Source: an uncultured delta proteobacterium (lineage in GTDB: Bacteria > Desulfobacterota > WTBG01 > JAGOGO01). From it: a stretch of 64,000 nt of DNA. Positions 3,567 to 62,618 of this stretch are shown here, one piece after another. The translations under genes and the position numbers were made by a program. The notes beneath the pieces are model-generated. The model saw only the letters and a list, made by a program, of their open reading frames with translations. It made no database searches and was not told the DNA's origin. The stretch is from the NCBI GenBank assembly GCA_963727835.1, contig CAVSIB010000030.1, positions 5,127 to 69,126 on the forward strand. The letters run 5' to 3'. Positions within the stretch are counted from its first letter, which is position 1; every line of letters begins with the position of its first letter.

Positions 3567-5135
3567 ATGAATCAATTGACATTTAATGAAAAAGATCTTA
3601 GGCAAATGAAGGCTCTGGCAATCACAGAGAAAAAGGTTCGAGCCCAAATCGCGATTTTTAAACGGGGAAGCTTTTTCCAAAAACTCATTCGCCCCTGCAC
3701 TCTCGGTGACGGGATAATCAGCATTTCGGAAAAAGAAATCCCGCAATTGCTCAGAAAACACCAGGAGGAGGGTGCCTACCAAGGAAGACTTCTCAAGTTT
3801 GTGCCTGCTTCAGGAGCGGCAAGCCGTATGTTTGATGTGCTGATGAAGTACTTAAAAAGTGATTCGCGCGTGCACCGAAAGGAAATTATCCAGAGGGCTG
3901 GTGCTGGCGATCAAGAAGCTAAAGAGGTGCTTTCTTTCGTTGATGGCATCAAACGGTTTGCTTTTTATGATGACCTAAAAAGCGTGCTGGCCCGAATGGG
4001 ATTAATGGTAGATGATTTATTAGCCCAATGTGAGTACACACACCTCATCGAGGCTTTAGTAACTGATCGCGGTCTTAACTATGCTAATCTTCCGAAAGGG
4101 CTACTCAAGTTTCACGCTTATCCTGAGGGTTGCCGGACGGCTTTAGAGGAACACTTGGTAGAGGCAATAGCGTATGTTCAAGACCAAACAGGGATTTGCC
4201 GGCTCCATTTTACGGTTTCTCCAGAACATCAAGAGCGATTCATGCACCATTTCGAAGCAGTGAGAGCGCACTATGAAACAAAATACCGCGTCCGCTTTCA
4301 CGTAGATTTTTCAATCCAAAAACTTTCAACCGACACGATCGCTGTGGATATGAACAATGAACCTTTTCGGGGAAAAGATGGAAAACTCGTTTTCCGGCCT
4401 GGAGGACATGGCGCGCTGATTGAAAATTTAAATGATATCCAGGGAGATATAATTTACATAAAAAATATCGACAACATTGTTCCCGATCCCCTCAAAGGAG
4501 AAACCTTTCTCTGGAAAAAAATTTTAGGGGGACTCCTCATACAAATTCAGGAAAAAATTTTTACGTATTTAAAGAAGCTTGAGCGTCAGAAAGAAAACAA
4601 AGTAGTTGAAGAAGCCTTCGAGTTTGCCGAAAAACAGCTTTTTATCCCCCCCCCAAAGAAAAAGCTGGGGTCAAAAAACGAAATACGGGAGTTTCTTTTA
4701 AAAAAATTTAATCGTCCTATCCGAATCGGCGGCATGGTAAAAAATCAAGGTGAACCAGGAGGGGGACCGTTCTGGGTGCAAGGGGAAAATGGTTCTTTAT
4801 CTCTCCAAACGGTGGAACACGCCCAGGTTGATATGAAATCAGCTGAACAGCAAAAAATATGGGGTATGGCAACGCATTTCAGCCCCGTAGATTTTGTCTG
4901 CGGAGTCCGGGATTATAAAGGAAATCCCTTTGACCTTAAGCGTTACGTAGACCAGGATGCAGTTTTTATTTCTCGAAAATCAAAAGATGGCCGAGCCTTA
5001 AAAGCCTTGGAACTTCCCGGCCTCTGGAACGGGGGCATGGCTGACTGGATTACTATTTTTGTTGAAGTTCCGCTGATTACTTTTAATCCGGTTAAAACCA
5101 TCAATGATCTGCTTCGCAAGGAGCATCAACCCTAA
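3567..5135 (+). CDS. DUF4301-like protein with UDP-sugar-pyrophosphorylase-like motifs
   Basis: The 522-aa ORF carries PASGAASRMF and FRPGGHGAL motifs typical of UDPGP-type nucleotidyltransferases. It lies next to sugar-nucleotide genes. Confidence 0.45.
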   Translation: MNQLTFNEKDLRQMKALAITEKKVRAQIAIFKRGSFFQKLIRPCTLGDGIISISEKEIPQLLRKHQEEGAYQGRLLKFVPASGAASRMFDVLMKYLKSDSRVHRKEIIQRAGAGDQEAKEVLSFVDGIKRFAFYDDLKSVLARMGLMVDDLLAQCEYTHLIEALVTDRGLNYANLPKGLLKFHAYPEGCRTALEEHLVEAIAYVQDQTGICRLHFTVSPEHQERFMHHFEAVRAHYETKYRVRFHVDFSIQKLSTDTIAVDMNNEPFRGKDGKLVFRPGGHGALIENLNDIQGDIIYIKNIDNIVPDPLKGETFLWKKILGGLLIQIQEKIFTYLKKLERQKENKVVEEAFEFAEKQLFIPPPKKKLGSKNEIREFLLKKFNRPIRIGGMVKNQGEPGGGPFWVQGENGSLSLQTVEHAQVDMKSAEQQKIWGMATHFSPVDFVCGVRDYKGNPFDLKRYVDQDAVFISRKSKDGRALKALELPGLWNGGMADWITIFVEVPLITFNPVKTINDLLRKEHQP

Positions 5136-50479: not shown

Positions 50480-52450
50480 TTAATTGTCCAGCACCTCTCG
50501 TATTTTAAACAAAATCTCTTCCGGCGAGACGGGTTTACCAATAAAATTTAACCCCTCAAGAATTGCTTGTTCATCAATAATCTCAGCGGAATAACCGCTG
50601 ATAAAAACTGCTTTTATCTCCGGCTTGATTTTTTTTATGGCATCGTAAGCCTCTTTTCCATTCTTTTTAGGCATGATGACATCCAGAAGCAAGAGATGGA
50701 TATCATCCTTGTGTTTTAGAAATTGTTCGATCGCATTTTCTCCATCGCGTGCTTCGAGGACTTTGTACCCAAATTCTTCCAGGATTCCTTTCACTAGGCT
50801 CGCAACTGCCGGATCATCGTCTGCGACAAGTATTGTCTCAGTACCCCTTTTAAGCGGGGGCGAAGCTTTTTCTTCTTGCCTTTCAAATGTCGAATCAATC
50901 AAGGGAAGATAAATATTAAAGGTTGTTCCTTTACCAACCTCACTTTTAACGTCAATATACCCGTCATGTTGTTTCACAATGCCATAGACCATGGAAAGAC
51001 CAAGACCAGTTCCTTTCCCTACCTCCTTCGTGGTAAAAAAGGGGTCGAAAATTTTTTCCTTAGTCTTCTCATCTATCCCAATACCTGTATCGGTAACCGA
51101 GATAAGGGCATAACCACCTGAGTGTCTGGGTTGTGAGGTGACTACACTATGTGGGAGCAACTGTTCCGCCCCGGTCGTAATAGTTAACACACCACCTTTG
51201 GGCATGGCATCCTTGGCATTGGTAACGAGATTCATGAAGATCTGATCTAACTGCCCTTGGTCAGCCATGATAATCAAATCTTTATTGCACAGTTCGATCT
51301 TAAACTCTATGTCTTCTTTAATGAGTCTCCCGAGGAGCTTTTTTAAGTTGCTGATACTTTCATTAAGATTTAATGACCTCGGAGCACTCAACTGTTTTCT
51401 GCTAAACGCAAGAAGGTTCTTGGTCAGACTTGCTGCCCTTTGGGCTGAGTCAAGTATTTGTGCAACATGAGAACTGATCGGGCTTCCTTGTGGAATTTTC
51501 ATTTGAATAAGCCCCCCAAAACCCATTATCGCCGTGAGGATATTATTAAAGTCATGGGCTATGCCGCCGGCCAGAGTTCCGATTGCTTCCATTTTTTGGG
51601 CATGCCAGAGCTGTTCTTGGAGTTGTTCTTTTTCTGCTTCCCTTTTTTTTAACGCATCAAGCATAGTGTTAAATGCGTCAGCGAGCTTGCCGATTTCATC
51701 CCCGGTCTCAACCCCCACATCACTGACCACGCCTCCAATACCGAGAGTGTACACCCCTGCAGTCAATCGTTTAAGGGGAATTGTTATCTGCCTGGTCATA
51801 ATAAATATAAGTAAAGAACCGATGCTCCAAAAAACAAAACCTATTAAAATACTTTTTAATAACAGGATATTGAGCTGTTTTTTAAGTTCGACTTTATCAA
51901 TGGTTAATTTTGCAAAACCAGTGATAAGTTCCTTTTTTTTCGAAGGGCGCTCTCCCAGAACCAGATATTCTTCAGAAGCATATCCTGCGACTGTGATGAC
52001 CGGCGACCATAATTCCATAGAGTCCTTGCCCTTAAGCAAACACAGAGGCTGATCCTGCCGGAAACTTGCAATTACGTTACCCGGGACTTTTTCATTTTCG
52101 TCTGCTGATGTTTGCTGATCCGTGACTTTATATTTCTTTAGCTTTTTAAACAAATTTTTTTGCAGATTAAATACAGAAACCTCTAAGACGCTTTCCTGTT
52201 GAAAAATTCCTTCAACCGCATCTCTGAGCAGGTCTTTATTTTCTGAAAGAACGCCGAGCCTCACGCTGTAAGCAAGGACCCCGACAAGTAATTCTGAGTT
52301 TTTCATCAGAGTATTGGTGAGCGCTTTTCTTTGCTGATAGTAAAAAAAGATCGTAAAAACAGAGGAAATGATGAAGAAAAAAATTGTAAAGGTAACGAAT
52401 ACCTTAATGCTGAATTTTTCACGCAAGAGCTTAAGAAAATTTAAATTCAT
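50480..52450 (-). CDS. Hybrid sensor histidine kinase/response regulator (TM-sensor-TM-HAMP-HisKA-HATPase-REC)
   Basis: H-box [11 protein letters not shown], the G-box DTGIGI/GTGLGL, and a C-terminal receiver ILVADDD...LLLDVIMP; 656 aa. Confidence 0.9.
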
Positions 52451-52459
52451 CTTGTGCCT

Positions 52460-53380
52460 TTACTTCAGAATCTTAGCTTTTTCTAAGACCTTCTCATCAA
52501 TAGTGATTCCCAACTTTTTTGCTATCTTGAGGTTAATTAATATTACTGCCTTCCTGGCATCAATGCGCTGAACATCCCTCTTACCCCCATTGGAAAGGAT
52601 TGCTTTAGCCATTTCACCGGCCTGATTGCCTATATCAAAGGGGTCTACGCTGATTGACATTAATGCACCGAGCTCAACATATTTTACTGAAAAGGAGATG
52701 ATCGGTTTCTGATTTTCGAGCAAGAAGAGAAGCAGAAAATCGATGGTCTCAGGAGAATACACGGTGATATCCGGGATCATCCAGAAGGCATCTATCTTGT
52801 TTCGAAGATTCTTTAAGGCGGAAGGGACCTCTTTTGTGCTCTGAACTTTTTCTTTTATCAAAGAGATACCCATGGTATTAGCCGCATGCACCGCCTCTTT
52901 TATAAAATTGCCGGTCCTATCCGGGTTATATAAGGTACCGATCGTTTTTGTTGCTGGTAAAACCTCTAGGAGGGTAGCGACCTGCCTTTCGGGAGATAGA
53001 GTCATACTGATACCGCTGATATTCTTTTCACCGAAAGTAATTGCCTGAGGATTGAGAACCATCATATAAATAATCGGAATGTCCTCGATCTCTTTTATTT
53101 CTGTGAGCGCATCCATCCCGATGGCGAGAATAAGTTCCGGTTTGTTGAATTGAATTAACTGGGAAGGGTTGATTTTCTCCTGGTCGGAAAGAACTACTTT
53201 CGTAATCTCAGCATCACAGACACTTTTAAAACCGGCAAGCGCTTCCTCATATGGTGCAACGCTAAGGCTCTGGACAACGAGTACCCTCTGCCCAGCTTCT
53301 GCCAAACCGTTGCAACATACTAATATTAAAAAGGAAGTAAAGATTTTTGTAATCACGAATTTCTGTTGCGATACCGTCAT
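52460..53380 (-). CDS. ABC-transporter-type periplasmic substrate-binding protein (ABC_sub_bind family), co-oriented with the kinase
   Basis: A 306-aa ORF with a signal peptide and family-typical ...LNLKIAKKLGITI... at the C-terminus. It lies 10 nt upstream of the kinase gene. Confidence 0.7.
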   Translation of the reverse strand: MTVSQQKFVITKIFTSFLILVCCNGLAEAGQRVLVVQSLSVAPYEEALAGFKSVCDAEITKVVLSDQEKINPSQLIQFNKPELILAIGMDALTEIKEIEDIPIIYMMVLNPQAITFGEKNISGISMTLSPERQVATLLEVLPATKTIGTLYNPDRTGNFIKEAVHAANTMGISLIKEKVQSTKEVPSALKNLRNKIDAFWMIPDITVYSPETIDFLLLFLLENQKPIISFSVKYVELGALMSISVDPFDIGNQAGEMAKAILSNGGKRDVQRIDARKAVILINLKIAKKLGITIDEKVLEKAKILK

Positions 53381-53770: not shown

Positions 53771-55726
53771 ATGAATTTTAGGAACCGAGACATTCTAATT
53801 GTTTGTTTTTTTGTGTTCTTTTCTACCCTCCCCCTCTTTCTTTTCTGTCCACCCTCCTTTGCCCAGTCAGAGGAGGAAATGCAAACTCTCCAGATGTTTT
53901 ATAAGGAAAAAGACCTGGTAGTATCCGCTACCAGAAACCTCGAACCAATCTCTCAGGTTGCCGAAAATATCACGGTTATTACTGCCAAAGACATCGAGCA
54001 TATGAATGCCCATACTGTGGCTGATGTCCTGAACCGTGTCCCGGGTCTCTTCATTAATTATAATCAGGACTTCGGCGCCCCCTCGTTGCTTCAAATCCAG
54101 GGCTCGGAGCCGAGGCATGTCCTCGTTGTGGTTGACGGCATCAAGTGGAATTCTCTGGCAAGCGGGGCGGCTGAAACAAACGCTATTCCGGTAGATATCA
54201 TCGAACGCATAGAGATAATCAAAGGCCCTGCCTCATCATCCTGGGGTTCAGCTTTAGGAGGGGTGGTAAACATCATCACCAAGGACGCAGGAAACACCAG
54301 CCGGCCTTCAGGCTCTCTAAGCGCTTCGTATGGGGAAAGAGAAACCCAGGATTATAGGGCTCAGGTTGCGGGGTTAGCCGGGACAGTAGGGTATTATCTT
54401 TATGCAGGGCACCAGGAATCTGACGGTTTCAGAGAATCGCGGGATTTTGAGACTTACAGCCTTTACTCCAAGGTTCATCTCCCGGTCACAAGCAAGGTAA
54501 CTACTGACTTTACTCTCGGGTACAGTGAACCGGACCAGAAGGTTGGGGATTTTCCGGGCGAGGATATTACCCAACGAGCAGCAAATCCGACTTTTTTTGC
54601 AACTGCGTCCCTTGATGCCTCCCTTTCCAAAGAGTTAAGCTTTGCAGCATCCTTTCACGAATTCAAGCAAAGATTTTCCGAGTGGTTCAATTCCCTCGGG
54701 CTTTACGGGCTTCCTTTTGATCCTCCCGGAGCATTGTATGAGCATGAGGTTTATGATGAGGAAACCACGGGAGGGGATGCAAAGTTTACCTGGGCTCATG
54801 GGATCCACACCGCAGTTCTTGGAGGAGAATTTGATCGCGGCACGCTCGACCAGACGATCAAGGCCGGGACTTTACTTCAATTATATGGCTTTCCAGCAAT
54901 TGCGACTACCAGCCCGGGCATTGACCGGTGGGCAGTATATGCCAATGACACCATTGTCATTGACCGGTGGTCCATCACCCCGGGGGTCAGGTATGACCGA
55001 AACAACATTACCGGCTCATTTGTCAGTCCAAGCCTTGGCATAACCTACCAGGTTTGGCGAGATTCTGTTTTACGCGCTTCAGTGACGCGTGGTTTTACCA
55101 TCCCTCCTTTATCCTGGACGTCCGGGGGGGGGTTAACTCTTCTTCCCAACCCAAGTCTAAACCCGGAAAAAATCATGTCCTACCAGTGTGGCGGGGAAAC
55201 CGCGGTGCTCAAGTACTTCTGGTTAAAGGCGACCTTGTTCCGGCATGAGGTGGAAGATACCTTAAGCCCTAACTATGAACCACCACCATCCCCATATTAC
55301 ATCATTGTCAATGGCAAAAAGACCAGGAGACAGGGCGGAGAAATTGAACTGCAAACCGTCCCGGTTTATAATTTTTATTTTGTCGGCGGATATTCTTACG
55401 TCCATTATTCCCCTCCCAGCGAATCTACCGCCACCAAAGACTCCTATTCCTATTCTCTCGGTTTCAGATACGATGACAATAGATCTTTCCGGGGGGAACT
55501 TTTTGGCCATTATGTGTGGTGGGACCTTGATCCCAGTTTTATGGCAAAATACCATGCTTTTATCTGGGACCTGAACCTTACCAAGAAAATCTTCCTCCAG
55601 GAGAAGACCTCATCTGAGCTTTTCTTTACTGCCCACAACCTTTTTAACGGCGCTCAGTATTTTTCTGTGGAAAGCGAAAACCCCCGACGGTGGGTAGAGG
55701 CCGGAATAAGAATTAAATTTAAATAA
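53771..55726 (+). CDS. TonB-dependent outer-membrane receptor
   Basis: Signal peptide, plug domain ITVITAKDIEHMNAHTVADVLNRVPGL...VVDGI, a long beta-barrel, and a C-terminal aromatic-rich strand; 651 aa. Confidence 0.9.
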   Translation: MNFRNRDILIVCFFVFFSTLPLFLFCPPSFAQSEEEMQTLQMFYKEKDLVVSATRNLEPISQVAENITVITAKDIEHMNAHTVADVLNRVPGLFINYNQDFGAPSLLQIQGSEPRHVLVVVDGIKWNSLASGAAETNAIPVDIIERIEIIKGPASSSWGSALGGVVNIITKDAGNTSRPSGSLSASYGERETQDYRAQVAGLAGTVGYYLYAGHQESDGFRESRDFETYSLYSKVHLPVTSKVTTDFTLGYSEPDQKVGDFPGEDITQRAANPTFFATASLDASLSKELSFAASFHEFKQRFSEWFNSLGLYGLPFDPPGALYEHEVYDEETTGGDAKFTWAHGIHTAVLGGEFDRGTLDQTIKAGTLLQLYGFPAIATTSPGIDRWAVYANDTIVIDRWSITPGVRYDRNNITGSFVSPSLGITYQVWRDSVLRASVTRGFTIPPLSWTSGGGLTLLPNPSLNPEKIMSYQCGGETAVLKYFWLKATLFRHEVEDTLSPNYEPPPSPYYIIVNGKKTRRQGGEIELQTVPVYNFYFVGGYSYVHYSPPSESTATKDSYSYSLGFRYDDNRSFRGELFGHYVWWDLDPSFMAKYHAFIWDLNLTKKIFLQEKTSSELFFTAHNLFNGAQYFSVESENPRRWVEAGIRIKFK

Positions 55727-56060
55727 ACAAAAACGCCTCAATTAATTAGGCAATGGTTAACCAAGATGATGGTTAATTGTTTTCTGCGAAATCGTTTTCA
55801 CCCGAAATGGCCGGGACAAAGCCGAAACCCCCAGATTCTTTCCTACAACTTAACCAGGCTTAGCCTTGTTATCCACTCAACTGTTGATCATCCCCTATTG
55901 AGTGATTCTTCGGTGTCATTTCTTAGACAAGGCTGACGCAATTTCATCTTTCAGCAGATTGCCACGAATCCTTTGGGTTCTCGCAATGACAAAAGAAATA
56001 AGGTTAATCGTGTAAAAGTATGGATGAAAATTTAGCATAAGCAAGGTGAACTCCCCCATT

Positions 56061-56085
56061 GCCCCCTCTTTTCTAAAGAGGGGGC
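56061..56085. repeat. Perfect 11-bp-stem hairpin (GCCCCCTCTTT-tct-AAAGAGGGGGC), member of a local poly-C/poly-G hairpin family
   Basis: Read directly from the sequence. Related C-run/G-run hairpins occur at 53417-53437, 57641-57672 and 57781-57810. Confidence 0.7.
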
Positions 56086-56123
56086 GAAAACATTAGCATG
56101 CTTAGTAGCCGATCGGAATGTTT

Positions 56124-56152
56124 CTGACAGGTAAATTTTTTAATTCGATAAA
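56124..56152 (+). promoter_or_regulatory. Candidate promoter for the precursor array
   Basis: CTGACA (56124-56129), a 17-nt spacer, then GATAAA (56147-56152). The -35-like element exists only in front of copy 1. Confidence 0.3.
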
Positions 56153-56201
56153 AGTTAATCCTTTATATATTTGTAACCTTTTATTACCAAGGAGGTACGT
56201 T

Positions 56202-56306
56202 ATGAAAGAAGAAAGAATCATTATCATTGACGAAGGTATTGATGAAGTTAACCCGGATGGGTGGCAGGCGTGCTGCTGGGGACCTTTGTTTGCCTTCAGA
56301 GGCTAA
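56202..56306 (+). CDS. RiPP precursor peptide candidate, copy 1 (34 aa: MKEERIIIIDEGIDEVNPDGWQACCWGPLFAFRG)
   Basis: ATG lies 6 nt after AAGGAGG. It has an acidic leader-like N-terminus and a Cys/Trp/Phe-rich C-terminus, and sits upstream of a radical SAM/SPASM gene. Confidence 0.8.
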   Translation: MKEERIIIIDEGIDEVNPDGWQACCWGPLFAFRG

Positions 56307-56367
56307 TGAACCGATAAAAGTTAATCCTTTATATATTTGTAACCTTTTATTACCAAGGAGGTACGTT

Positions 56368-56472
56368 ATGAAAGAAGAAAGAATCATTATCATTGACGAA
56401 GGTATTGATGAAGTTAACCCGGATGGGTGGCAGGCGTGCTGCTGGGGACCTTTGTTTGCCTTCAGAGGCTAA
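56368..56472 (+). CDS. RiPP precursor peptide candidate, copy 2 (identical)
   Basis: Identical unit shifted by 166 bp, with its own AAGGAGG. Confidence 0.8.
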   Translation: MKEERIIIIDEGIDEVNPDGWQACCWGPLFAFRG

Positions 56473-56533
56473 TGAACCGATAAAAGTTAATCCTTTATAT
56501 ATTTGTAACCTTTTATTACCAAGGAGGTACGTT

Positions 56534-56638
56534 ATGAAAGAAGAAAGAATCATTATCATTGACGAAGGTATTGATGAAGTTAACCCGGATGGGTGGCAGG
56601 CGTGCTGCTGGGGACCTTTGTTTGCCTTCAGAGGCTAA
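56534..56638 (+). CDS. RiPP precursor peptide candidate, copy 3 (identical)
   Basis: Identical unit shifted by 332 bp, with its own AAGGAGG. Confidence 0.8.
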   Translation: MKEERIIIIDEGIDEVNPDGWQACCWGPLFAFRG

Positions 56639-56699
56639 TGAACCGATAAAAGTTAATCCTTTATATATTTGTAACCTTTTATTACCAAGGAGGTACGTT

Positions 56700-56804
56700 A
56701 TGAAAGAAGAAAGAATCATTATCATTGACGAAGGTATTGATGAAGTTAACCCGGATGGGTGGCAGGCGTGCTGCTGGGGACCTTTGTTTGCCTTCAGAGG
56801 CTAA
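56700..56804 (+). CDS. RiPP precursor peptide candidate, copy 4 (identical)
   Basis: Identical unit with its own AAGGAGG. Confidence 0.8.
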   Translation: MKEERIIIIDEGIDEVNPDGWQACCWGPLFAFRG

Positions 56805-56865
56805 TGAACCGATAAAAGTTAATCCTTTATATATTTGTAACCTTTTATTACCAAGGAGGTACGTT

Positions 56866-56970
56866 ATGAAAGAAGAAAGAATCATTATCATTGACGAAGG
56901 TATTGATGAAGTTAACCCGGATGGGTGGCAGGCGTGCTGCTGGGGACCTTTGTTTGCCTTCAGAGGCTAA
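56866..56970 (+). CDS. RiPP precursor peptide candidate, copy 5 (identical)
   Basis: Identical unit with its own AAGGAGG. Confidence 0.8.
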   Translation: MKEERIIIIDEGIDEVNPDGWQACCWGPLFAFRG

Positions 56971-57031
56971 TGAACCGATAAAAGTTAATCCTTTATATAT
57001 TTGTAACCTTTTATTACCAAGGAGGTACGTT

Positions 57032-57136
57032 ATGAAAGAAGAAAGAATCATTATCATTGACGAAGGTATTGATGAAGTTAACCCGGATGGGTGGCAGGCG
57101 TGCTGCTGGGGACCTTTGTTTGCCTTCAGAGGCTAA
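57032..57136 (+). CDS. RiPP precursor peptide candidate, copy 6 (identical)
   Basis: Identical unit with its own AAGGAGG. Confidence 0.8.
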   Translation: MKEERIIIIDEGIDEVNPDGWQACCWGPLFAFRG

Positions 57137-57197
57137 TGAACCGATAAAAGTTAATCCTTTATATATTTGTAACCTTTTATTACCAAGGAGGTACGTT

Positions 57198-57302
57198 ATG
57201 AAAGAAGAAAGAATCATTATCATTGACGAAGGTATTGATGAAGTTAACCCGGATGGGTGGCAGGCGTGCTGCTGGGGACCTTTGTTTGCCTTCAGAGGCT
57301 AA
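57198..57302 (+). CDS. RiPP precursor peptide candidate, copy 7 (identical)
   Basis: Identical unit with its own AAGGAGG. Confidence 0.8.
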   Translation: MKEERIIIIDEGIDEVNPDGWQACCWGPLFAFRG

Positions 57303-57363
57303 TGAACCGATAAAAGTTAATCCTTTATATATTTGTAACCTTTTATTACCAAGGAGGTACGTT

Positions 57364-57468
57364 ATGAAAGAAGAAAGAATCATTATCATTGACGAAGGTA
57401 TTGATGAAGTTAACCCGGATGGGTGGCAGGCGTGCTGCTGGGGACCTTTGTTTGCCTTCAGAGGCTAA
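57364..57468 (+). CDS. RiPP precursor peptide candidate, copy 8 (identical)
   Basis: Identical unit with its own AAGGAGG. Confidence 0.8.
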   Translation: MKEERIIIIDEGIDEVNPDGWQACCWGPLFAFRG

Positions 57469-57529
57469 TGAACCGATAAAAGTTAATCCTTTATATATTT
57501 GTAACCTTTTATTACCAAGGAGGTACGTT

Positions 57530-57634
57530 ATGAAAGAAGAAAGAATCATTATCATTGACGAAGGTATTGATGAAGTTAACCCGGATGGGTGGCAGGCGTG
57601 CTGCTGGGGACCTTTGTTTGCCTTCAGAGGCTAA
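57530..57634 (+). CDS. RiPP precursor peptide candidate, copy 9 (identical)
   Basis: Identical unit with its own AAGGAGG. ATG at 57530 was checked on the sequence. Confidence 0.8.
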   Translation: MKEERIIIIDEGIDEVNPDGWQACCWGPLFAFRG

Positions 57635-57640
57635 TGAACC

Positions 57641-57682
57641 GAAAGGGGGGTTATACTTAGTTCCCCCTCTTTTTCTTTTTTA
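57641..57682 (+). terminator. Candidate intrinsic terminator/attenuator between the precursor array and the maturase gene
   Basis: A G-run (57645-57650) pairs with a C-run (57663-57667), flanked by A/T pairs, then TTTTTCTTTTTT. The loop is rather large (about 12 nt). Confidence 0.45.
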
Positions 57683-57729
57683 AAAATCATGGTTCATCGT
57701 GTAAAAACGCAGGTGAAAGGCAAGGAGTA

Positions 57730-57759
57730 TTGATTTACCAAATGCAGACATCATATAAA
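57730..57759 (+). promoter_or_regulatory. Candidate internal promoter for the radical SAM gene
   Basis: TTGATT (57730-57735), an 18-nt spacer, then TATAAA (57754-57759), about 135 nt upstream of ATG 57894. Confidence 0.3.
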
Positions 57760-57893
57760 GTAGAAAACAAGCTGGAACTACCCTGCCCCCCCTTTTTTTG
57801 AAAAGAGGGAGTTGGGGTAGTTAACCAAGCAATGGCATCGTGAGTTAAGAAAAAATTTGATTGCGACGAAAAGTTTTATTTACAGGAGGTGAA

Positions 57894-59186
57894 ATGCAGC
57901 TTTCTCACTATCTCAAAATATACCCCTACGAGGAAAAACCGGGGCATCTTTTGCTTTTTTCTACCAAAAAAAGTTCCGTCATTGTCATTAAGGAAGAGAC
58001 CTTTCAGGCAATAGAACAAGCTACTCTTTCCCCTTCGGATGAGGCTTTGTTATTCAAACACGGGGTGATTGTGCCGGACCGGGAAGAAGAAAAGCGGAAT
58101 ATGTTCGGGCTGTTGGATACGAAAAATACGAGGAATCCGGCCTTGAACAGTATGGTAGTTCTCAATCTGGACTGCAACTTTGCCTGTCTTTACTGTTATG
58201 AAGGTGACATGAAGGGAAATCGCTATATGTCAGATGAGACTGCTGCCCTCCTGATAGATTTAATTAAAAAGAACTTCACGGGAGAAAAGAAAAAACTGCT
58301 TATAGACTTTTATGGCGGGGAGCCCCTCCTGAGCTTAGGATTAATTAAATCAATTTCCCGTGAGTTGAGTGCCTTTACTCAGGGAAAAGGAGGTTCCTTT
58401 AATTTCACGCTGGTCAGTAATGGTGCGCTCTTTAAAAAGCAGGTAGCAGAAGAGCTTGTTCCTTTAGGGCTGGAAAGGATTAAGATTACCCTCGATGGAC
58501 CGGCTGAGGTTCATAACCAATACCGGCCTTTTAAGTCTGGAGCCGGAAGCTTTAATACCTTAATAAGAAATATCAAGGAGACCTGTGACCTGGTAAAAAT
58601 CAGCATCGGAGGAAATTTTGAAAGCCACAACTATGAACAATTTGTATCCCTCCTCGATTTTCTGATTAAGGAAGGGCTCACACCGGAGAAGATTAGTGGT
58701 ATTAAGTTCGACCCGGTTTCAAAGCGGCCAGAGGGCGATATTTCACCTGCTGACTATAAAGGCGGCTGCATGTCCATGGACGAGCCTTGGCTTATTAAGG
58801 CCTCGGAAATTTTGCGGGAAGAGATACTCAAAAGAGGCTATAACACTCCCAAAATTGCGCCAATTTTTTGTATGGTTGACAACAAAAGCTCTTTTGTGGT
58901 CAACTTCGATGGGGTCATTTATAAGTGCCCGGCCTTTATCGGCAAGGAAGGGTTCGCGGTAGGCAATGTTCAAAACGGAATTGACGATTACACGAATTCT
59001 TATAAGCTTGGCCTTTGGAAAACCAATGACGAATGTGCTGAATGTGTTTACCTGCCCCTCTGCTTTGGAGGCTGCCGATATACGAAATTTATCCAGAAAG
59101 GTAATATAGATACCTTAGACTGCCGCAAAGATTATCTTGATGCTACCCTCGAGACTTTCATTAAACAGGAGGTAAAGTTTAGGTAG
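57894..59186 (+). CDS. Radical SAM/SPASM-domain peptide maturase with an N-terminal RRE-like (PqqD-like) region
   Basis: ATG at 57894 lies after GGAGG (the ORF track starts at TTG 57861). About 90 aa precede CNFACLYC (CX3CX2C). GGEPLL is present. The C-terminus carries C-X13-G-X4-C (CMVDNKSSFVVNFDGVIYKC), then CAECVYLPLCFGGC (CX2CX5CX3C), then a later Cys (LDCRKD), which together form the full SPASM signature. Confidence 0.9.
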   Translation: MQLSHYLKIYPYEEKPGHLLLFSTKKSSVIVIKEETFQAIEQATLSPSDEALLFKHGVIVPDREEEKRNMFGLLDTKNTRNPALNSMVVLNLDCNFACLYCYEGDMKGNRYMSDETAALLIDLIKKNFTGEKKKLLIDFYGGEPLLSLGLIKSISRELSAFTQGKGGSFNFTLVSNGALFKKQVAEELVPLGLERIKITLDGPAEVHNQYRPFKSGAGSFNTLIRNIKETCDLVKISIGGNFESHNYEQFVSLLDFLIKEGLTPEKISGIKFDPVSKRPEGDISPADYKGGCMSMDEPWLIKASEILREEILKRGYNTPKIAPIFCMVDNKSSFVVNFDGVIYKCPAFIGKEGFAVGNVQNGIDDYTNSYKLGLWKTNDECAECVYLPLCFGGCRYTKFIQKGNIDTLDCRKDYLDATLETFIKQEVKFR

Positions 59187-59228
59187 GGAGCAGAAGACAG
59201 GAGGCAGATGGAAAGAGGGTGACTCTAA

Positions 59229-59450
59229 AAATGTCATTCCTGCAAAAGCAGAAATCTAGAACCAATCGAAATTACTGGACTCTCCCGAGTCAAGTTTGGG
59301 AGAGTAACAGATTGGGAATTATTAGACGTTCTCTTGATTCTTGCACGAGATCTCGGTTATAGTGAGACAAATGATTTAATGCTCCAGGTGGAGGAAGTGA
59401 GTAAACTTCTTGATGCCTATGCGAAAGCTATTCTGAATTCTGACTCCTGA
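59229..59450 (+). pseudogene. Start-less fragment resembling the C-terminus of a four-helix-bundle (23S rRNA intervening-sequence-type) protein
   Basis: The frame is open from 59229 with no start codon: ...DWELLDVLLILARDLGYSETNDLMLQVEEVSKLLDAYAKAILNSDS*. It is preceded by a degenerate gtcattcctgcaaaagcagaaatc-type hairpin element. Confidence 0.4.
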
Positions 59451-59473
59451 CGTCTGACGTCTAAATTAGTAGT

Positions 59474-60754
59474 ATGAAATTTATTGCTGATTTCCACATT
59501 CATTCCCATCTTTCCCGGGCTACCAGCCGTGAGATGAACCTTGAGAATATCTATAAGTGGGCTCAACTCAAAGGGGTAACTGTGGTGGGGACTGGAGATT
59601 TTACCAATCCCCAATGGTTTAAAGAACTCCGCGAAAAACTTGAGCCTTCTGAACCCGGCCTCTTTGTTTTAAAGCCACAGTATCGACATGCTATTGATGA
59701 GGAGATTCCTGAGTCCTGCCGAGCATTGGTGAGATTTATTCTGTCGGTAGAAATTAGCAGCATTTACAAAAAATACGAAAAGACACGTAAAGTTCATAAC
59801 CTCATCTTCTTCCCTGACCTTCGTTCTGTTTCCCGTTTAAATGCCATGCTCACAAAGGTAGGCAACCTCTCATCGGATGGAAGACCCATCCTGGGGCTGG
59901 ACAGTAAAGAGTTATTGAGAATGGCTCTTGATGCCTCTCACGAGACATATTTTGTGCCCGCCCACATCTGGACTCCTCACTTCTCGGTCTTGGGCGCAAA
60001 CAGCGGCTTTGACTCTCTTGAAGAATGCTTTGAAGAGTTAACGCCGTTGATCCACGCCGTAGAAACCGGACTGTCGTCTGATCCCCCTATGAATTGGAGG
60101 CTTTCCGGCCTGGATAACGTAACACTCATCTCTAACTCCGATGCCCATTCTCCTAATCGCATCGGCCGAGAGGCGAATATTTTTTCCGCCGAGCTTTCTT
60201 ATTTTTCTATTCTCGATGCGCTCAACAATCCAGTAAAAGGCGAGTTTTTAGGAACTATCGAATTTTTTCCCGAAGAAGGAAAGTACCACTTTGATGGTCA
60301 CCGCACTTGTGGAGAGCGGCTCTCGCCCGCGGAAACCATCAGACATGGGGGGATTTGTCCAAAGTGCGGGAAAAAAGTTACTGTGGGAGTTATGCACCGG
60401 GTTACCGAATTGGCGGATCGTCCCTTAGGCTTTGTGCCTGATGGAAAACCTACTTTTAAAAGCCTCGTCGGACTCACGGGGGTGATCAGTGAAATTTATG
60501 AAGTGGGGGGAAAAAGTAAAAAAGCCCAGAATGAATATTTACGGCTCCTGAGGCTTCTGGGAAATGAGTTATTTATTCTTATGGACTGCCCTCTGCCTAC
60601 CCTTAAAAACGCCGGTCTTTCCCTCCTTCCCGAGGCGATCAATAACGTGCGGAAAGGTGAGGTAAGCATTCTGCCTGGCTACGACGGAGAATACGGGAAG
60701 GTGAGAGTCTTTAAGGAGAAAGAGAAAAACTCAAAACAGCTGAAACTCTTTTGA
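59474..60754 (+). CDS. EndoQ-like PHP-domain nuclease (TIGR00375-type) with a C-terminal zinc ribbon
   Basis: MKFIADFHIHSHLSRATS (PHP HxH), ...NSDAHSP..., and HRTCGERL...ICPKCGKKVTVGVMHRV; 426 aa. Confidence 0.7.
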   Translation: MKFIADFHIHSHLSRATSREMNLENIYKWAQLKGVTVVGTGDFTNPQWFKELREKLEPSEPGLFVLKPQYRHAIDEEIPESCRALVRFILSVEISSIYKKYEKTRKVHNLIFFPDLRSVSRLNAMLTKVGNLSSDGRPILGLDSKELLRMALDASHETYFVPAHIWTPHFSVLGANSGFDSLEECFEELTPLIHAVETGLSSDPPMNWRLSGLDNVTLISNSDAHSPNRIGREANIFSAELSYFSILDALNNPVKGEFLGTIEFFPEEGKYHFDGHRTCGERLSPAETIRHGGICPKCGKKVTVGVMHRVTELADRPLGFVPDGKPTFKSLVGLTGVISEIYEVGGKSKKAQNEYLRLLRLLGNELFILMDCPLPTLKNAGLSLLPEAINNVRKGEVSILPGYDGEYGKVRVFKEKEKNSKQLKLF

Positions 60755-60755
60755 A

Positions 60756-62618
60756 ATGCCCCTCGATTTAAGCCTTCTGAATTCTTCTCAGCGTGAGGCG
60801 GTCACAGCTCCAGATGGTCCTTCACTGATCATCGCCGGTCCTGGAACCGGTAAAACTCTGACACTTGCCTATCGTATCGCCTATCTCATCTCCGCATTGG
60901 GAATCAACCCGGAAAAAATTTTGGCAGTAACCTTTACCACCAAAGCCGCCCAGGAGATGAAGGAGAAACTCACTAAAATCTTGCCTTCTGATTCACCCCT
61001 TACCCAGTACCTTGCTCACCTTACGGTCAGCACTCTACATGCGCTCGGCCTGTCTTTCTTACGACAGCACGGTGAGAAGGTCGGCCTGTTGCCAGATTTT
61101 CAAATACTTTCCGAATCAGAACAGGTGCAGCTGGTAAAAGAAATTCTCTCTCAGCTTATGCCTCAAGAATCACTTAACCGGGCTTTAAAATGGGTGCGAA
61201 GAATTTCCGAACACAAAAATCTTTTTGGCGATACGCCCATGGGTTGTGATCTTCAGTTGAGTCATGCTCAGGAGATATTCTCTGCATACGAGAAAAAGCT
61301 GTTGGAACGTAATCGGATAGACTTTGATGATTTAATCCTCAAACCACTCATGCTGTTGCAGGAGTTCCCTGAGGTGCGAGAAGACTACCAAAACCGGTTT
61401 AAGTATATTCTCGTAGATGAATACCAAGATCTCAATAACCCCCAGTACTTGTTTCTTAAAAAACTCTGCGGTCCGAAAACCAGTGCTTGGATTATTGGTG
61501 ATGCGGATCAGGCTATTTATGCTTTCCGGGGAGCTAATGTAGAATATTTTTTGACGTTCCAGCAGGACAATCCCCAAGCCCGACGTATTTATTTAGAAAG
61601 AAACTATCGTTCCTCTGAACCTATCCTTGCCGGTGCTTTAGCAGTGATAAAAAACAACACCAATCGTCTCCCGAACAATCTCTTCCCCTCAAATCCAGAC
61701 GGTTCGCCTATCTATCTCTTTCACGCCTCTGACCCCCGAGCTGAAGCTCGCTTTATAGTTAAAGAGATCGAAAAACTGGTCGGAGGAACCCGGATGGAAT
61801 CTCATTATGAAGAATCAGAGATGTTCGGATTCAGCGATATTGCTATCCTCTATCGCCTTCACCATCTCTCCCTTCCTTTTTCGGAAGCGCTTCAGGAATC
61901 AGGTTTCCCCTATCAGATTGTGGGAGGTCATTCCAATAATGTTGACTCTATCTCCGGGTATTTAATCCCCTTTCTGAAAGTGGTACTTAACCCTCATGAT
62001 GACCTTTCTTTTCGGGCTATCGCGCCTCACATAGATAAACACTCTGATTCTCGCGCCATGTTCCTTTCACTCATTGCCCGGTATCAGAGGGAAATTAGCA
62101 CCGTAAGCCTTGAGGCGCTGATTAAAAATATTGTTCAGGAAATGAAGATAAAAGAAAAAGATAGGTTCGAATGGCTCACCCTTGTTGAACCATTCCAGGA
62201 TGGTAGTGCTGACAAGCAGCTTCCCCATTTCTTGGAGTACATTTCGCTCTTAAAAGAGGGAGAGACTTATAACCCCAAAGCGGAAGCAGTCACACTCATG
62301 ACTGTTCATGCAGCCAAGGGTTTGGAATTCCCGGTGGTATTCATAGTGGCTCTGGAATCAGGGGTTTTCCCCTGTACCGAATTTGGAGAAGAGCCATCTG
62401 ATAAAGAAGAGGAAAGACGGCTTTTTTACGTGGGCATGACCAGAGCTCAACAAAGGCTCTACCTTTCCTTTGCCAAAGAAAGGTTTCTTTTTGGCGAAAA
62501 CCGCAAGGAACCGCCTTCACCCTTTATCTCGGAAATTCCTCAGAAAACGATCGAGAACATATCTGATCCCAGAAAGCCATCAAGACCAAAAGTCAAACAG
62601 CGCACCCTGTTTTCTTGA
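60756..62618 (+). CDS. UvrD/Rep/PcrA-family superfamily-1 helicase (short, 620 aa)
   Basis: AGPGTGKT (motif I), ILVDEYQDLN (II), TVHAAKGLEFPVVF (V) and FYVGMTRAQQRL (VI). It starts 2 nt after the preceding stop. Confidence 0.88.
   Translation: MPLDLSLLNSSQREAVTAPDGPSLIIAGPGTGKTLTLAYRIAYLISALGINPEKILAVTFTTKAAQEMKEKLTKILPSDSPLTQYLAHLTVSTLHALGLSFLRQHGEKVGLLPDFQILSESEQVQLVKEILSQLMPQESLNRALKWVRRISEHKNLFGDTPMGCDLQLSHAQEIFSAYEKKLLERNRIDFDDLILKPLMLLQEFPEVREDYQNRFKYILVDEYQDLNNPQYLFLKKLCGPKTSAWIIGDADQAIYAFRGANVEYFLTFQQDNPQARRIYLERNYRSSEPILAGALAVIKNNTNRLPNNLFPSNPDGSPIYLFHASDPRAEARFIVKEIEKLVGGTRMESHYEESEMFGFSDIAILYRLHHLSLPFSEALQESGFPYQIVGGHSNNVDSISGYLIPFLKVVLNPHDDLSFRAIAPHIDKHSDSRAMFLSLIARYQREISTVSLEALIKNIVQEMKIKEKDRFEWLTLVEPFQDGSADKQLPHFLEYISLLKEGETYNPKAEAVTLMTVHAAKGLEFPVVFIVALESGVFPCTEFGEEPSDKEEERRLFYVGMTRAQQRLYLSFAKERFLFGENRKEPPSPFISEIPQKTIENISDPRKPSRPKVKQRTLFS

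Follow-up and report, generated by a model that had tools for sequence, protein, structure and literature searches.

Nine identical tandem cistrons beside a TIGR04280 radical SAM/SPASM maturase in an uncultured Desulfobacterota bacterium: a probable array of modified-peptide precursors

The locus under study lies in a stretch of 64,000 nucleotides (nt) of contig CAVSIB010000030.1, from an uncultured delta proteobacterium, which is here called the window and to whose positions all coordinates refer. It harbours a tandem array of nine identical units, each comprising a spacer, a Shine-Dalgarno sequence and a small open reading frame (ORF). The nine cistrons are located about 250 nt 5' of the gene for a radical S-adenosylmethionine (SAM)/SPASM peptide maturase, the locus being thus one in which at least two identical cistrons adjoin a modifying enzyme. 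The array and its cistrons are the following:

56146..57642, + strand: tandem array of nine identical 166-bp units (spacer, Shine-Dalgarno sequence and 34-codon predicted precursor ORF), delimited by repeat analysis
56202..56306, + strand: predicted precursor cistron 1, MKEERIIIIDEGIDEVNPDGWQACCWGPLFAFRG plus stop; Shine-Dalgarno AAGGAGG at 56189-56195
56368..56472, + strand: predicted precursor cistron 2, identical
56534..56638, + strand: predicted precursor cistron 3, identical
56700..56804, + strand: predicted precursor cistron 4, identical
56866..56970, + strand: predicted precursor cistron 5, identical
57032..57136, + strand: predicted precursor cistron 6, identical
57198..57302, + strand: predicted precursor cistron 7, identical
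57364..57468, + strand: predicted precursor cistron 8, identical
57530..57634, + strand: predicted precursor cistron 9, identical

For 56146-57642 Tandem Repeats Finder reports 9.0 copies with a period of 166, 100% matches, 0 indels and a score of 2994, and a scripted comparison recovered a single distinct 166-nt unit among all nine copies, in agreement with the letter-identical units described in an earlier note on this DNA. By script, the identity extends past the array edges for 0 nt leftward and 3 nt (CGA) rightward, and the opening 35 nt of the ORF are found 9 times, all without mismatch, against 0.00 occurrences in shuffled sequence. The ATG start codons are the first positions of the cistrons listed above, each being preceded by AAGGAGG-TACGTT (AAGGAGG-N6-ATG). 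The ORF runs for 34 codons and is closed by the in-frame double stop TAA TGA, and 61 nt separate the stop codon from the next ATG; this spacer length was also that of the earlier note. As 166 leaves a remainder of 1 on division by 3, the reading frame of successive ATGs rotates (2, 0, 1 and so on) and the array cannot encode one repeat protein. Indeed, it is the period, together with the Shine-Dalgarno sequence and the double stop of each unit, that makes the copies separately translatable cistrons, as had been claimed before. A single-ORF precursor with multiple cores was rejected on account of the rotating frames and of the TAA TGA that ends each unit, and a CRISPR array, already discounted in the earlier note, because the entire 166-bp unit repeats and no unique spacers are found between the units. 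The ORFs that cross unit borders (81 residues on the plus strand and 69 on the minus strand) are by-products of the repeat. Public gene calls at this place have 71 and 76 residues (P0001 and P0121), being over-extended and starting within the preceding unit. Exact-sequence look-ups with the 34-residue peptide and with the 71-residue public gene call matched no contig, and sequence look-ups returned no public record of the 34-residue product itself.

The encoded peptide is partitioned into conserved and variable segments. A conserved leader (MKEERIIIIDEGIDE) occupies codons 1-15 and a hypervariable patch codons 16-23; next comes an invariant Cys-Cys pair, and the C-terminal tail, W-G-x-x-FAFRG, is again conserved. 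We have carried out a scan for orthologues, using the downstream enzyme as query and one genome per species, which yielded 20 orthologous maturase loci in metagenome-assembled genomes (MAGs) of Desulfobacterota and Nitrospirota, 53-88% identical. In loci L002-L018 a small ORF bearing a Shine-Dalgarno sequence lies directly upstream of the maturase (55-86% identical) and encodes a peptide of the same design, namely a charged N-terminus, (E)I(V)VLDxGID, about 10 variable residues, CC and about 9 residues often ending in R; across these loci M1, G12, C24 and C25 are invariant. The pairing of precursor and maturase is seen in at least 20 other loci, and it bears out the earlier proposal that the peptide is the precursor of a ribosomally synthesised and post-translationally modified peptide (RiPP), a radical SAM/SPASM maturase being encoded directly downstream. 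A profile built from 18 precursors was run against 5.8 billion proteins and retrieved 183 of them at E ≤ 0.01, none of which has a name, and in public records the related precursors are either unannotated or called as over-long ORFs. No matching Pfam model was found for the peptide, and a precomputed PF27842 tag on one homologue was not reproduced.

In close relatives, the leader, the CC pair, W26-G27 and FAFRG vary only synonymously or by Arg/Lys exchange, and amino acid replacements concentrate at codons 16-23 and 28. The length of the ORF shifts in whole codons (31, 33 or 34 residues), and the spacers vary freely (51-71 nt). This is a coding-type substitution pattern which, as judged from the alignments, marks the ORF as a real gene under selection. 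Distant loci have one precursor copy without the DNA repeat, from which it follows that the conserved thing is the ORF and not the DNA repeat. The earlier note had envisaged homologues in which the repeat is kept and the ORF is not; what was found is the reverse. A further repeat, with a 96-nt period, was observed about 1.2 kb upstream of the precursor in L007 (816-1280) and L008 (4442-4734), inside a larger gene on the opposite strand, and appears unrelated to the peptide.

The enzyme encoded downstream of the array is the following:

57894..59186, + strand: radical SAM/SPASM peptide maturase (TIGR04280), N-terminal domain modelled as similar to a RiPP recognition element (RRE); assigned from hidden Markov models, Protein Data Bank (PDB) matches and cysteine conservation

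Its score on the NCBIfam model TIGR04280 ('geopeptide radical SAM maturase') is 578.7 bits, above the cut-off of 400, with a match that spans residues 1-429 of 430, and it is thus within the family; NCBI gives this same name to homologues of the maturase, for example that of ORM2a. The next-best models (CefB, TIGR04463, Clo7bot, PapB, nif11-type and SCIFF), which describe other radical SAM/SPASM maturases of Cys-containing peptides, all score below their own cut-offs. For the characterised subfamilies these scores are 109.8 against 425 bits (SCIFF, TIGR03974), 140.8 against 340 (PapB, NF047865) and 91.7 against 500 (CcpM, TIGR04068), with the PapB and SCIFF models matching at 1e-41 and 1e-31. 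The radical SAM motif CX3CX2C (C94, C98 and C101) and the seven SPASM cysteines of the motif for two auxiliary 4Fe-4S clusters (C326, C345, C381, C384, C390, C394 and C410) are invariant in 27 homologues, and the SPASM model TIGR04085 gives 57 bits (cut-off 27). The closest PDB match is CteB, both by sequence (5WGG/5WHY, E = 3.7e-21) and by fold, the latter from a full-length alignment of the AlphaFold model. This model is of moderate quality (mean pLDDT of 71, with low values in the cluster-binding loops) and comprises a confident N-terminal beta-beta-beta-helix domain of the leader-binding (RRE) kind. Four homologues of the maturase (P0208, P0222, P0281 and P0283) have 723-733 residues and are fused to an additional domain.

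The geopeptide system (precursor TIGR04229, maturase TIGR04280; NCBIfam/TIGRFAMs) has been defined in silico. The present locus resembles it in that the maturase scores above the TIGR04280 cut-off and a short peptide gene lies immediately upstream, which is the genomic context described for TIGR04229; the peptide also gives a weak match to this model, from the leader to the CC pair. It differs in the precursor score, which at 13.4 bits (E = 0.053) is below the TIGR04229 cut-off of 30. Among 18 related precursors the model matches nine, with a best E-value of 6e-4. The enzyme thus belongs to TIGR04280; the precursor does not belong to TIGR04229, of which it is a divergent relative. No biochemical study of geopeptides or of TIGR04280 was found by full-text searches, and a homologue search started from a distant maturase and aimed at the canonical Geobacter loci returned MAG proteins only.

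As to the chemistry, CteB is the thioether-forming maturase of thermocellin (SCIFF) and PapB is the maturase of freyrasin. With both of them the present system shares an RRE-like N-terminal domain, a radical SAM core, a seven-cysteine SPASM domain and the presence of cysteine in the substrate core. By analogy, Cys-derived thioether rings, formed from C24 and C25, are probably the most likely modification. The maturase scores, however, far below the cut-offs of the CteB and PapB models, the thioether kinship being one of enzyme similarity only, and the core has one CC pair instead of 5 or 6 spaced cysteines. The thioether chemistry of CteB and PapB has been reviewed (PMC11002830).

We have then compared the array with the corresponding loci of the clade around the benzene-degrading ORM2 bacteria, of which tandem arrays are a feature, being present in at least eight independent assemblies. 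The loci of relatives are the following:

ORM2a (L002), syntenic complete genome: 1 cistron, single copy
L024: 2 cistrons, period 164 bp
L030: 4 cistrons, period 150 bp, three identical and one variant
L031: 2 cistrons, period 150 bp, the same two peptides as L030
L029: 2 cistrons seen, period 150 bp, the two peptides of L030; count uncertain, with an N-gap just upstream
L001: 5 cistrons, period 156-157 bp, units 92-98% alike; two with indels of frameshift type, possibly sequencing errors
L028: at least 4 intact cistrons and part of a fifth at the contig start, period 157-164 bp
L027: 6 cistrons, period 162-163 bp, units of subtypes A and B, arranged A A B A B B
L025: 7 cistrons, period 166 bp; contig made of repeat units only, so that the array has at least 7
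L033: 10 cistrons, period 156-158 bp

The number of cistrons thus varies from 1 to 10 among relatives, as the earlier note had anticipated when it suggested a search for copy-number variation. The units cluster by array: identity is 91-100% within an array and 74-90% between lineages, a pattern which, on the sequences compared, is that of concerted evolution, and which agrees with the homogenisation and unstable copy number that the same note had predicted. The spacers align across arrays, with the consensus TAA TGAACCGATxAAxGT ... AACCTTTTxTTAAACCAAGGAGG; this homology indicates that the duplication junction is shared and that the tandem state is old. The clearest case is a same-species strain (samples Ga0182021 and Ga0182022) that shares 97.7-98.6% identity with the window in the flanks and carries a TGG to TTC change (W21F) in the first copy (L023), in the last copy (L026) and in all seven units of L025. 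The edge copies in L023 and L026 are firmer evidence for an array-wide W21F than L025, because they are anchored in unique sequence. A unit of 166 bp is long enough for homologous recombination, and expansion, contraction and conversion are expected in tandem duplications. We infer that both the identity of the 166-bp units and the variation in copy number result from unequal recombination or gene conversion among them. In L027 (5001-5919), subtypes A and B are told apart by R5/K5 and, ahead of the ATG, by GGTACGTT/GGGACATC, and their interleaved order suggests higher-order duplication or patchy gene conversion.

The array is flanked by two putative regulatory elements:

56113..56144, + strand: putative operator/promoter, a near-palindrome TCGGAA-TGT-TTCTGA followed by the AT-rich CAGGTAAATTTTTTAAT, 5' of the first cistron; from conservation
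57645..57681, + strand: terminator-like element (G+C hairpin, then a T-rich run) immediately 3' of cistron 9, with the maturase gene about 210 nt further on

The upstream element is conserved in the window and in L001, L002, L022, L024, L027, L030, L031 and L033, and is not found in the internal spacers, which align with the upstream region but are devoid of the palindrome. A scan with the sigma-70 consensus returned no promoter match, and for this reason its role as operator or promoter is put forward as a presumptive one. An internal promoter in each unit was rejected, given the lack of sigma-70-like sites and of the upstream palindrome in the spacer. On the other side, a hairpin equivalent to the one after the last cistron is present 3' of the L027 array. 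In L023 (Ga0182021_10000341), from the W21F strain, about 33 nt are missing with respect to window 56119-56151, including the palindrome and the AT-rich element; this is a true deletion of regulatory sequence or else a join made in the short-read assembly. Another G+C-rich hairpin, CCCC..TGCCCCCTCTTT-N-AAAGAGGGGG..AGTT, was noted in the window at about 56050-56090 and 57780-57815 and in L027 at about 4615-4665; it is accompanied on both array flanks, and upstream of the L027 array, by the stretch GGTTxATCGTGTAAAA, and may be a small repeated element or a terminator pair.

We have also clustered the neighbouring ORFs across 23 loci, and four genes emerged as co-conserved with the maturase, three of them being present in the window:

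53771..55726, + strand: TonB-dependent outer-membrane receptor (Plug and beta-barrel domains)
52460..53380, - strand: periplasmic substrate-binding protein (PF04392), lacking a transporter partner in its vicinity
50480..52450, - strand: hybrid sensor histidine kinase (HAMP-HisKA-HATPase-REC)

The receptor is present in 20 of the 23 loci, just upstream on the maturase strand, and keeps 43-59% full-length identity even in distant loci; the kinase is present in 18 loci and the binding protein in 15. Of the proteins in the module, the receptor has diverged most among close relatives, with 79-83% identity against 84-91% for the kinase, the binding protein and the maturase, which gives a hint, and only that, that its divergence could reflect co-evolution with the variable patch of the peptide. 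The fourth gene, for a major facilitator superfamily (MFS) transporter, lies directly downstream of the maturase in nine distant loci (L003, L005, L009, L010, L012, L014, L018, L019 and L020), and its product is a candidate exporter. Among the module neighbours no ATP-binding cassette (ABC)/C39 exporter and no immunity gene were found. Directly downstream of the maturase, at 59474-62618, lies a pair formed by a TIGR00375-family protein and a UvrD/PcrA-type helicase; the conservation of this pair is restricted to the ORM2-like clade, and it does not belong to the peptide module. A defence system was considered and rejected, as PADLOC gave generic radical SAM and UvrD (GajB-like helicase) similarity only.

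Taken together, these data make it quite likely that the array consists of nine independently translated copies of the precursor of a radical SAM-modified RiPP, for which the following mechanism may be envisaged. The array would be transcribed from the conserved region at 56113-56144 and most transcripts would stop at the 57645-57681 hairpin, so that only read-through would reach the maturase gene at 57894-59186. With nine translation units per transcript, the substrate peptide would thereby be in large excess over the catalytic maturase, an arrangement that would suit a stoichiometrically consumed substrate and a catalyst of which little is required; a dosage strategy is thus a reasonable reading of the array. 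The N-terminal domain of the maturase would bind the leader, and the radical SAM core and two auxiliary clusters would cross-link the core peptide, probably into thioether rings as in CteB and PapB. The product would then be exported and brought back through the outer membrane by the TonB-dependent receptor of the module, after which the pair of binding protein and histidine kinase would sense it. We infer these steps, that is, transcription, translation, modification chemistry, export and uptake, as well as the benefit of dosage. In particular, it is the co-conservation of receptor, binding protein and kinase that suggests a product acting outside the cell, re-imported and sensed.

A number of observations weigh against this interpretation, or against parts of it. 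The candidate MFS exporter is absent from the clade of the window, and no leader protease was found among the module neighbours; the sigma-70 scan supports no promoter ahead of the array; the precursor falls short of the TIGR04229 cut-off; and with two cysteines only in the core, the thioether chemistry is a guess by analogy. Also, ORM2a, the closest complete genome, has one copy, which implies that a high copy number is not required for the system. Finally, the count of nine and the perfect identity come from a single assembly, and the identical units of L025, a short-read contig, may be due in part to the assembler walking round a cycle, which makes it weak evidence for identity within the array. 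It could thus be argued that the repeat is real but that its nine copies, or their perfect identity, were made by the assembler or by consensus polishing. Indeed, perfect 166-bp repeats are difficult to assemble, the short-read contigs L023, L026 and L034 of the same species end at the array, and L025 is made of repeat units only. However, assemblies of relatives into long contigs resolve 5, 6 and 10 units with small unit-specific differences, which shows that arrays of such size exist in the clade, and the array sits within unique flanks that an independent contig confirms at 100%. This is the Logan short-read contig L034, identical to window 57613-62398 and beginning 30 nt inside the last unit, precisely where a break is expected at the assembly-graph branch made by a repeat. 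The contig breaks at the array are, in fact, the behaviour of a genuine repeat in short-read assemblies, and an artefact of this kind seems to us quite improbable. A very recent and transient adaptive amplification from a single copy, in place of a long-maintained homogenised array, is a different matter, as it would account for the zero divergence among the nine units, for the single copy of ORM2a and for the difference between near-identical strains (4 copies in L030 and 2 in L031). Nevertheless, the spacer junction is homologous in lineages whose units are only 74-85% identical, so that the tandem state is old, and arrays recur in the independent assemblies of the clade mentioned above; we regard such an amplification as unlikely, and since contraction followed by re-expansion is itself a mode of homogenisation, it overlaps with the explanation by a homogenised precursor array.

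The alternative that the repeat is non-coding (a satellite, a set of regulatory sites or a structured RNA) and the ORF incidental can draw on the unit-crossing ORFs of 69 and 81 residues, which show that the minus strand and shifted frames are also open. It meets with the fact that the ORF is kept in single copy beside the same enzyme where the DNA repeat is absent, and with the coding-type substitutions; moreover, Rfam gave no match at the gathering threshold, the only matches being at chance level and outside the array, and the predicted RNA fold of the unit is unremarkable (z = -0.6). This non-coding reading appears largely refuted by the sequence comparisons, and we give it hardly any credence. 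A more substantial question is whether the precursor array serves the production of a secreted antimicrobial, in which case the multiple copies and the fast-evolving core would reflect an arms race, and the receptor and kinase would be concerned with immunity or regulation. All the known precedents of identical tandem precursors are antibiotics (thiocillin, thurincin H and thuricin Z) and the core does carry a hypervariable patch. On the contrary, the module comprises no immunity gene, ABC exporter or C39 peptidase, and what is strictly kept together, from Desulfobacterota to Nitrospirota, is a protein for import (the TonB-dependent receptor) with a binding protein and a kinase. There is thus a small chance that the product is a bacteriocin, whereas a role as signal or as metal or nutrient carrier, rather than as a classical bacteriocin, is possible, with chances that range from doubtful to about even.

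Comparison with known systems delimits what is particular to this locus. Four identical precursor genes, tclE-H, are known for thiocillin (PMC5100339), and three for thurincin H and two for thuricin Z (PMC8172795), so that a claim that multi-precursor RiPP loci always have diverged paralogues would be too strong; the earlier note had said of the loci known to its author that they have such paralogues or repeat the core inside one ORF. Identical tandem precursor genes are therefore already known in kind, and the present array is an extreme case. As in those loci, several identical precursor cistrons adjoin modifying enzymes, but there are 9-10 copies in this clade instead of 2-4, the producers are outer-membrane anaerobes (Desulfobacterota) and not Bacillus, the module is without protease, immunity gene and ABC exporter, and the copies vary from 1 to 10 among close relatives, with differences fixed array-wide. 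Cyanobactin PatE and fungal UstA also provide several product units per locus; there, however, the cores repeat inside one ORF, whereas here each unit has its own Shine-Dalgarno sequence, start and double stop. With respect to transport, the itf cluster of Bacteroides is a radical SAM RiPP cluster with a dedicated TonB-dependent transporter, ItfF (PMC11002830), and resembles the present locus in being a RiPP cluster with such a transporter in an outer-membrane bacterium; it differs in having a YcaO protein, an ABC/C39 exporter and a different precursor, and no tandem array. A literature search found nothing joining SPASM, TonB-dependent transport, precursor peptide and Geobacter. What sets the locus apart is thus the number of 9-10 copies, the array-wide fixation of variants, the host group, the module of receptor, binding protein and kinase, and a maturase family for which the literature searches yielded a database name and no published chemistry.

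The locus therefore offers a clean natural case in which a whole bacterial cistron undergoes both concerted evolution and copy-number variation, with an amino acid change fixed array-wide. It also gives access to a widespread and chemically uncharacterised peptide family, with 183 precursors and thousands of maturase homologues in Desulfobacterota and Nitrospirota, which public annotation overlooks or mis-calls at the level of the precursor genes and whose carriers include the clade of the benzene-degrading ORM2 bacteria. The strict linkage to receptor, binding protein and kinase suggests that a secreted peptide is taken up and sensed, which is poorly documented in outer-membrane anaerobes. 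One may go further and picture a self-produced circuit, a doubtful proposal which we advance tentatively, in which the CC peptide, cross-linked by the radical SAM enzyme, is released, re-imported by its own TonB-dependent receptor and read in the periplasm by the binding protein and hybrid kinase, as a strain-specific signal or as a metal or nutrient carrier. If this were true, the hypervariable patch beside the CC pair and the fast-diverging receptor would set the specificity, and recombination within the array would tune the output, from 1 to 10 copies, and sweep variants such as W21F through all the copies.

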